In this document: in pieces, positions 55,950 through 56,030 of the stretch
Numbering within the stretch: position 1 is the stretch's first letter
Layout of the letters: each line of letters starts with the position of its first letter
Source of the DNA: Deltaproteobacteria bacterium
Lineage (GTDB): Bacteria; Myxococcota_A; UBA796; CAJQPC01
Direction: 5' to 3'
Assembly (NCBI GenBank): GCA_016717595.1
Contig: JADKFE010000010.1
Location: forward strand, 49,031-113,030
DNA: 64,000 bases
The notes under the pieces: generated by a model
What the model was told of the DNA's origin: nothing
Database searches by the model: none
Seen by the model: only the letters and a program-made list of their open reading frames with translations
Program-made: the position numbers and the translations under genes

Positions 55950-56030
55950 GGGGGGGGGGGGGGGGGGGGCGGGGGCGTCGCGGCCCGCGGGGGGGCGGGG
56001 GGGGGGGGGGGGCGGGGGGGGCGGGGCCCG
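55950..56030. repeat. Near-pure poly-G tract (G20-c-G5 ... G7-c-G16-c-G7-c-G4) between divergent glycosyltransferase genes
   Basis: Directly visible. Runs of 20, 16 and 7 G within about 80 bp. Confidence 0.9.

Follow-up and report, generated by a model that had tools for sequence, protein, structure and literature searches.

The region described here lies in a stretch of 64,000 nt with a GC content of 69.5% (the window, which is the whole of the DNA that was analysed) from an uncultured species of Myxococcota, class UBA796, of activated sludge. Two glycosyltransferase genes diverge from an intergenic region of 195 bp, and this region contains a G-rich block (the G block) that is 80 nt from the ATG of the GT2 gene on the minus strand and 34 nt from the GTG of the GT-C gene on the plus strand. 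Related loci, designated by L numbers, were collected by scanning a genome collection with the GT2 protein, by protein look-ups, and by one scan of metagenome DNA with a conserved flank. The features of the locus are listed in Table 1.

Table 1. Features at and around the divergent glycosyltransferase genes. Positions are those of the window unless another locus is named.
Feature	Position	Strand	Description
Second GT2 gene	54222-54953	-	downstream of the first GT2 gene; similar to polyprenyl-phosphate sugar synthases (PpgS/DPM-like)
GT2-family glycosyltransferase gene, 330 aa	54878-55870	-	Pfam PF13641, PF13632, PF00535; ATG at 55870; divergent from the G block
Left intergenic part	55871-55949	.	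motif GAGAGTATGCCACGG at 55895-55909
G-rich block	55950-56032	+	83 nt; probably a garbled consensus standing in for a hairpin element of about 150 nt
Right intergenic part	56033-56065	.	ACCATGAGGCCCGCGGC, then motif GGAATAGAGCGTC at 56050-56062, just upstream of the GTG start
GT-C-fold membrane glycosyltransferase gene	56066-57106	+	GTG at 56066; 346 aa, truncated by a +1 frameshift
Rest of the GT-C gene in the next reading frame	57055-57395	+	C6 run at 57055-57060
Hairpin element	L031 (reverse complement) 1939-2088; L035 about 2232-2383		

The Pfam matches of the 330-aa protein bear out an earlier note on this DNA, made from the sequence alone, which had placed a GT2 gene on the minus strand with its start at 55870; the gene is also backed by the frame-specific GC content. 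The NCBIfam match of this protein is MftF-like and falls below the cut-off. The orthologues in L001 and L002 are 94-96% identical. The true start of the second GT2 gene is probably internal because the orthologues are annotated as 219 aa.

The protein encoded by the plus-strand gene was compared with Pfam and NCBIfam, including the PMT/PMT_2 profiles, and no match was obtained even at E = 10. The AlphaFold (AF2) model of the family, built with 31 sequences, has a pLDDT of 91.4. The best Foldseek match of the model is ArnT (5ezm) with an E value of 4e-5, followed by AftB, AftD, AglB, and Pmt4. The acidic residue D47 is invariant in the family alignment, which also contains an E135-G-T-D138 motif. 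The predicted structure supports the assignment of the gene as a GT-C-fold glycosyltransferase with a multi-helix membrane core like that of ArnT, PMT, and OST. This gene had been described as GT39-like with a start at 56066; the start and the fold class are borne out, whereas membership in family GT39 is not supported by a PMT/PMT_2 match.

GenBank entry MBK9644990.1 (locus tag IPO67_07550) has the same sequence as the open reading frame of 346 aa, down to the end created by the frameshift; the entry is labeled "MAG: Deltaproteobacteria bacterium" and belongs to a contig of 143,573 nt. The C6 run of the window is a C5 run in every relative (L001, L028, L035, and L037), and the one extra C causes the frameshift by which the GT-C product is cut to 346 aa. 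Deletion of one C from this run restores an open reading frame of 442 aa, the same length as that of orthologue P0038. The C6 run is probably a homopolymer-length error in the consensus and not the mark of a pseudogene.

The motifs GAGAGTATGCCACGG and GGAATAGAGCGTC are kept in all close relatives, with one on each side of the insertion site described below. When read on the strand of the GT2 gene, GAGAGTATGCCACGG becomes TGGCATACT, which resembles an extended -10 element. These motifs are likely to be core promoter elements of the divergent genes. A sigma-54-like reading of TGGCAT-N5-CCGCA upstream of the GT2 gene was dropped, since the -12 spacing is lost in L002 and L030.

The G block consists of 82% G and 17% C, with no A and a single T. 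The order of its segments is G20 C G5 CGTCGCGGCCCGC G7 C G16 C G8 C G4 CCCGGG. The G runs are found at 55950-55969 (G20), 55971-55975 (G5), 55989-55995 (G7), 55997-56012 (G16), 56014-56021 (G8), and 56023-56026 (G4). The runs had previously been given as G20, G16, and G7 with single C residues between them. The G20 and G16 runs are as described; the third run is a G8, with a separate G7. The single C separators are present in part of the tract, the middle of which is a 13-nt stretch of mixed G and C.

The G block contains the only G or C runs longer than 8 nt in the 64-kb window. It is also the only place where a stretch of 80 nt has at least 48 G, with a peak value of 65 of 80. At a G content of 35.2%, the expected numbers are 0.002 for runs of at least 16 G and 3.5e-5 for runs of at least 20 G. 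These expectations are far below the observed runs, and the block is therefore not a chance feature of the given string; a chance origin was ruled out on this basis. The earlier statement that such a tract is extraordinary at approximately 70% GC is thus borne out.

Two other segments of the window were recorded. An intergenic AT-rich island at 24300-24650 has a GC content of 42-49% in 200-nt windows, and nowhere else in the window does the GC content fall below 50%. At 40459-40599, imperfect repeats of a GCGGCGGCGGCCTCTTCAGCGGCCTTCGCC-type unit, palindromic or tandem, overlap one another; they probably encode a repetitive Ala/Glu-rich segment.

Two sibling MAGs of the window, JADJYZ (Lyne_18-Q3-R50-59_MAXAC.002) and JADJIW (Ejby_18-Q3-R6-50_BAT3C.362), appear among the entries of Supplementary Data 3 of Singleton et al. 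2021. Both are assigned in those entries to Myxococcota class UBA796, dRep cluster 487_1, and 16S type midas_s_814 / OM27 clade (Singleton et al. 2021). The DNA of that study was sequenced with PromethION R9.4.1 Nanopore cells and basecalled using Guppy 2.2.3 in flip-flop mode, and the assembly was carried through Canu, Racon, two rounds of Medaka, and a further round of Racon with HiSeq X reads quality-trimmed at Q20 (Singleton et al. 2021). The locus-tag style and the species identity suggest that the MAG of the window comes from the same project (BioProject PRJNA629478). Three of the same-species loci (L029, L036, and L037) contain split genes and deletions in G/C runs that are typical of such Nanopore data.

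The site is represented in the same species by six versions, those of the window and of five further contigs, and these provide three mutually incompatible sequences. In L031, L035, L036, and L037 the G block is replaced by a complex element of 126-152 nt between flanks that are 95-99% identical to those of the window. BLAST alignments of these loci with the window end at 55909-55949 and restart at 56033. L031 is a 41.7-kb contig from JGI with flank identities of 95.3% and 97.8% relative to the window; its complex element of 150 nt sits exactly between ...CCTTCGCCC and ACCATGAGGCCC... The flanks of L035 (GCA_016719515.1, contig 25) are 99.0% and 98.2% identical, the gene order is shared, and a 152-nt version of the element is found at the same junctions with no G or C runs of at least 7 nt. 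The copies of the element in L036 and L037 (GCA_016706815.1) are ridden with errors, and an additional C11 run is present at the left junction of L037.

The remaining same-species contig, L029 (GCA_016719515.1, contig 69), has TGCCGCGGTG, which matches the opening 10 nt of the element, followed by C56 G C44 that runs straight into GCGGAATAGAG. This homopolymer differs from the G block of the window in length and in strand polarity, whereas the flanks of the two have the same orientation. Among the window and the four loci from Nanopore MAGs, abnormal G/C runs are confined to this site. The non-G core of the G block is collinear with the center of the element (GGGC-TCGGCGAGCC..GGGGGC), and the local alignment has a z value of 1.4, which is not significant. 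The earlier note had named spanning reads of ordinary sequence without G homopolymers as the evidence that would speak against the tract; at the level of independent assemblies, sequence of this kind was found.

The same divergent gene pair is found in the sister species represented by L001, L028, and L038, which have a DNA identity of about 90-92% with the window. The spacer between GAGAGTATGCCACGG and GGAATAGAGCGTC in these loci is only 41 nt and contains GCCC-TA-ACC; neither a homopolymer tract nor the hairpin element is present at the site in any of the three. In a lineage further removed (L002, L030, and L034), the GT2 and GT-C genes are separated by an APH-family phosphotransferase (kinase) gene of 247 aa, and no homopolymer is found in the intergenic region of these loci. 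The presence of this gene indicates that the intergenic region has taken insertions repeatedly. The pattern of G runs is absent from all 11 of the related loci that were examined. Both flanks of the G block are adjacent and in the same orientation in eight loci (L001, L028, L029, L031, L035, L036, L037, and L038).

The gene content on either side of the glycosyltransferase genes varies among the relatives. A block of 2.4-3.4 kb is found between the GT-C gene and the gene of a sigma-54 activator in most relatives (6219-8583 in L001, 2290-5666 in L028, and 6084-8442 in L029) and is missing from the window at 57385-57396. The block contains genes of 218, 229, and 270 aa together with a LysR regulator. 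The short arrangement without the block is common to the window, L035, and L036, which indicates a real haplotype. Each of the two sibling MAGs has one contig per arrangement, which points to two co-existing strains or to a segmental duplication. On the other side, the relatives have AAA_15 / AAA_21 ATPase genes (abortive-infection or OLD-like) between the FAD oxidoreductase and GT2 genes, at 578-3368 in L029, 180-1715 in L038, and 1-450 in L035; the window has only about 45 nt at this place (54171-54215). From the sequences compared, the gap between the FAD oxidoreductase and GT2 genes looks like a variable insertion hot spot beside glycosylation genes.

The element is non-coding, 150 nt in length, and located in an intergenic, promoter-proximal position. 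It is predicted to fold as a single hairpin of 55 pairs, with an energy of -99.1 kcal/mol as RNA (z = -8.8) and of -45 kcal/mol as DNA (z = -4.0). In the predicted fold its ends, CAACGGTGGCCGTACAAGGTGAG and CTCAAATTGCACGGCTACCGCGG, are paired with each other, and they constitute imperfect terminal inverted repeats about 25 nt long. The site in L031 reads GCCC-TA-(element)-TA-ACC, and the unoccupied site in L001, L028, and L038 reads GCCC-TA-ACC. The terminal inverted repeats, the flanking TA in L031, and the empty site in the sister species are together characteristic of TA-duplicating miniature inverted-repeat elements. The left end of the element in L035 is TG and not TA, which may be a Nanopore error.

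The copies of the element in L031 and L035 differ by one compensatory pair change. The RNA of the plus strand, which is the strand of the GT-C gene, has a predicted energy of -99 kcal/mol compared with -76.5 kcal/mol for the RNA of the minus strand. The plus-strand RNA is more stable, by 23 kcal/mol, because of six G:U pairs. The element may act as an RNA structure besides being a relic of a mobile element, judging from the modeled folds. A search of L031 and L035 against Rfam returned no family that matches the hairpin element, and no long hairpins were found elsewhere in the 64-kb window. A BLAST search for further copies in the window and 38 loci, which amount to less than 1% of a genome of about 8 Mb, returned only the element's own locus.

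From the disagreement between assemblies, which is the sole ground for this reading, the G block is taken with a probability of roughly 0.85 to be a locus-specific basecalling or consensus artefact over a GC-rich palindrome. A metagenome assembly of the Nanopore R9 era would have failed locally and overwritten the almost perfectly palindromic insert of about 150 bp that belongs to this species. The hairpin would disturb strand translocation and basecalling, and the consensus step would then yield a homopolymer. With 83 nt standing in for 150 nt, the short reads would clip at the junctions, and polishing with them would be unable to mend the site. The same failure would have had several outcomes: a G-rich block in the window, a C-rich one in L029, and only the C11 run at the edge in L037, with the element surviving in L035 and L036.

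The G block is not reproduced at the same junctions by L031, L035, L036, or L037, and the site is a difficult template for the platform, being a GC-rich hairpin of 55 pairs in a species whose sibling MAGs were obtained by ONT R9.4.1 sequencing with flip-flop basecalling. Window-private anomalies in the length of G/C runs are also found outside the block, with C6 in place of C5 at 57055 and C3 in place of C4 at 55942; the C3 run that ends near 55942 is C4 in L029, L031, and L035. As a counterpoint, the rest of the window shows good polishing and differs from its relatives by very few uncompensated indels; it is therefore not obvious how this single spot could have escaped correction. The literature was searched for flip-flop basecalling, Canu, or Medaka writing long G/C homopolymers over hairpins, and no description was found. 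An assembly or read artefact had been the last of three explanations offered by the earlier note, and it is the one favored by the independent same-species assemblies.

The first of those explanations was a slipped-strand phase-variation switch, in which a real hypermutable G:C cluster in the shared promoter region would control the divergent GT2 and GT-C genes. The place would suit such a switch, since the tract lies in a divergent intergenic region between genes of the surface-glycan type. G:C homopolymers of different length occur in two of the six same-species versions (the window and L029), which is superficially like an unstable tract. However, these two homopolymers are on opposite strands between identically oriented flanks, and since slippage cannot swap strands, the pair is not explained by slippage. 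The poly-C of L029 is preceded by retained nucleotides of the element, the complex element itself occupies the site in four contigs, one of them 99% identical to the window, and the sister species have neither tract nor element. The runs of 44-56 nt in L029 are far above the 7-15 nt of known bacterial contingency tracts. A sigma-70 promoter scan around the G block gave 0 sites and no hexamer pair, so that a promoter spacer of the sigma-70 type was not detected around the tract. No tract that keeps its strand and position and varies in repeat number was found among the strains; the same-species assemblies carry either the 150-nt hairpin element or poly-C on the opposite strand, and no G tract of variable length. 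A real phase-variation switch is thus considered very unlikely. It is doubted even more that the hairpin element was truly replaced, in the strains of the window and of L029, by a giant unstable G:C homopolymer that differs in length and strand between co-existing strains. If true, this would be an unprecedentedly large contingency locus for a GT2 / GT-C glycosylation pair in an uncultured Myxococcota of the predatory type.

The cause that had been suggested for an artefact was the dark-cycle G call of two-colour Illumina chemistry, which would have entered the sequence at assembly or polishing. Like this artefact, the G block is a string of almost nothing but G, with other bases scattered in it as in the tails of dark-cycle reads, and it lacks a biological counterpart; read from the other strand, such tails could give the poly-C of L029. 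In contrast, the documented sibling MAGs were polished with Q20-trimmed reads of the HiSeq X, a four-channel instrument. Tails arising at random would not fall on one and the same element of 150 bp in three separate contigs, namely the window, L029, and L037 with its C11 run, and the anomaly here is confined to a single structured site and takes the form of poly-C in another assembly. The suggested cause is probably wrong given the HiSeq X polishing of the sibling MAGs, and dark-cycle calls are held to be as improbable an origin as the phase-variation switch.

A real G-quadruplex-forming regulatory element had been the remaining suggestion. The string as written contains runs of 20, 5, 7, 16, 8, and 4 G, far more than the four runs of at least three G with short loops that a G-quadruplex takes, and with loops of 1 nt it would form one; this potential holds trivially for the string as written. 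The proposal presupposes a real tract, against which the assembly comparisons argue. The feature is not conserved at any related locus, and the G-rich strand differs in L029, the sole other assembly with a homopolymer. The suggestion is therefore true of the string only, and a functional G-quadruplex is given a very slight chance, below that of either the switch or the Illumina calls. The possibility was also weighed that two unrelated contigs had been joined into a chimera by way of low-complexity sequence. Assembly graphs can be bridged by low-complexity strings, but the flanks are adjacent and co-oriented in eight related loci; the join was rejected as refuted by this synteny, and its probability is close to nil.

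The preferred reading of the G block as a consensus artefact over a palindrome bears on the use of the public record. The block stands in the deposited record but is almost certainly not a biological feature of the organism's DNA, as judged from the compared sequences. Accepted as written, it would pass for a striking phase-variation switch or a G-quadruplex element. The public MAG record would be in error at the G block, and the adjacent GT-C gene has a probable false frameshift in the same record. Long G/C homopolymers in Nanopore MAGs of the R9 era can flag structured elements that were lost, and such tracts should be compared with independent assemblies before they are given a biological meaning. 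The site would really contain a TA-flanked hairpin insert of 150 bp between divergent glycosyltransferase genes, possibly a MITE of a poorly known lineage.

Known bacterial contingency tracts are uninterrupted, usually 7-15 nt in length, located on one strand, and variable in length in all strains. Examples are the poly-G tracts in glycosyltransferase genes of Campylobacter and Neisseria, the poly-C tract of the Bordetella fim promoter, and the repeats in the divergent hifA/hifB promoter region of Haemophilus. The G block shares with these tracts a G:C homopolymer beside surface-glycan genes and a position in a divergent promoter region. It differs from them in that the relatives hold a complex element at the site, the strand changes from one assembly to another, and the runs are as long as 20-56 nt.

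The comparison class for a TA-flanked element of about 150 bp is provided by the Correia-type and the IS630/Tc1-mariner-derived MITEs. The features in common are a length of about 150 bp, the absence of coding capacity, imperfect terminal inverted repeats, and a long hairpin. The TA at both ends in L031, the single TA at the empty site of the sister species, and the promoter-proximal intergenic place are shared as well. In contrast to these MITEs, the element is present as one copy only in the sequence examined, its left end in L035 is TG, no transposase was found as its partner, and it has no similarity to Rfam families. By this analogy, the element is a possible MITE of the Correia-like or IS630-like kind.

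A likeness to the G block itself is provided by the Nanopore failures at inverted duplicates. Such duplicates alter translocation, and the Nanopore calls over them are then of low confidence, incorrect, or missed (Spealman, Burrell and Gresham 2020, NAR, PMC7229812). Both cases combine a strong inverted repeat with a grossly wrong consensus of the R9 era, and in both the failure is locus-specific and recurs in independent runs. The published cases are inverted duplications on the kilobase scale in yeast and human DNA, whereas the G block is a homopolymer-rich string over a 150-bp hairpin in a polished bacterial MAG. By comparison with those cases, the G block behaves like a more extreme form of the platform-specific error that has been reported for inverted repeats in Nanopore data.
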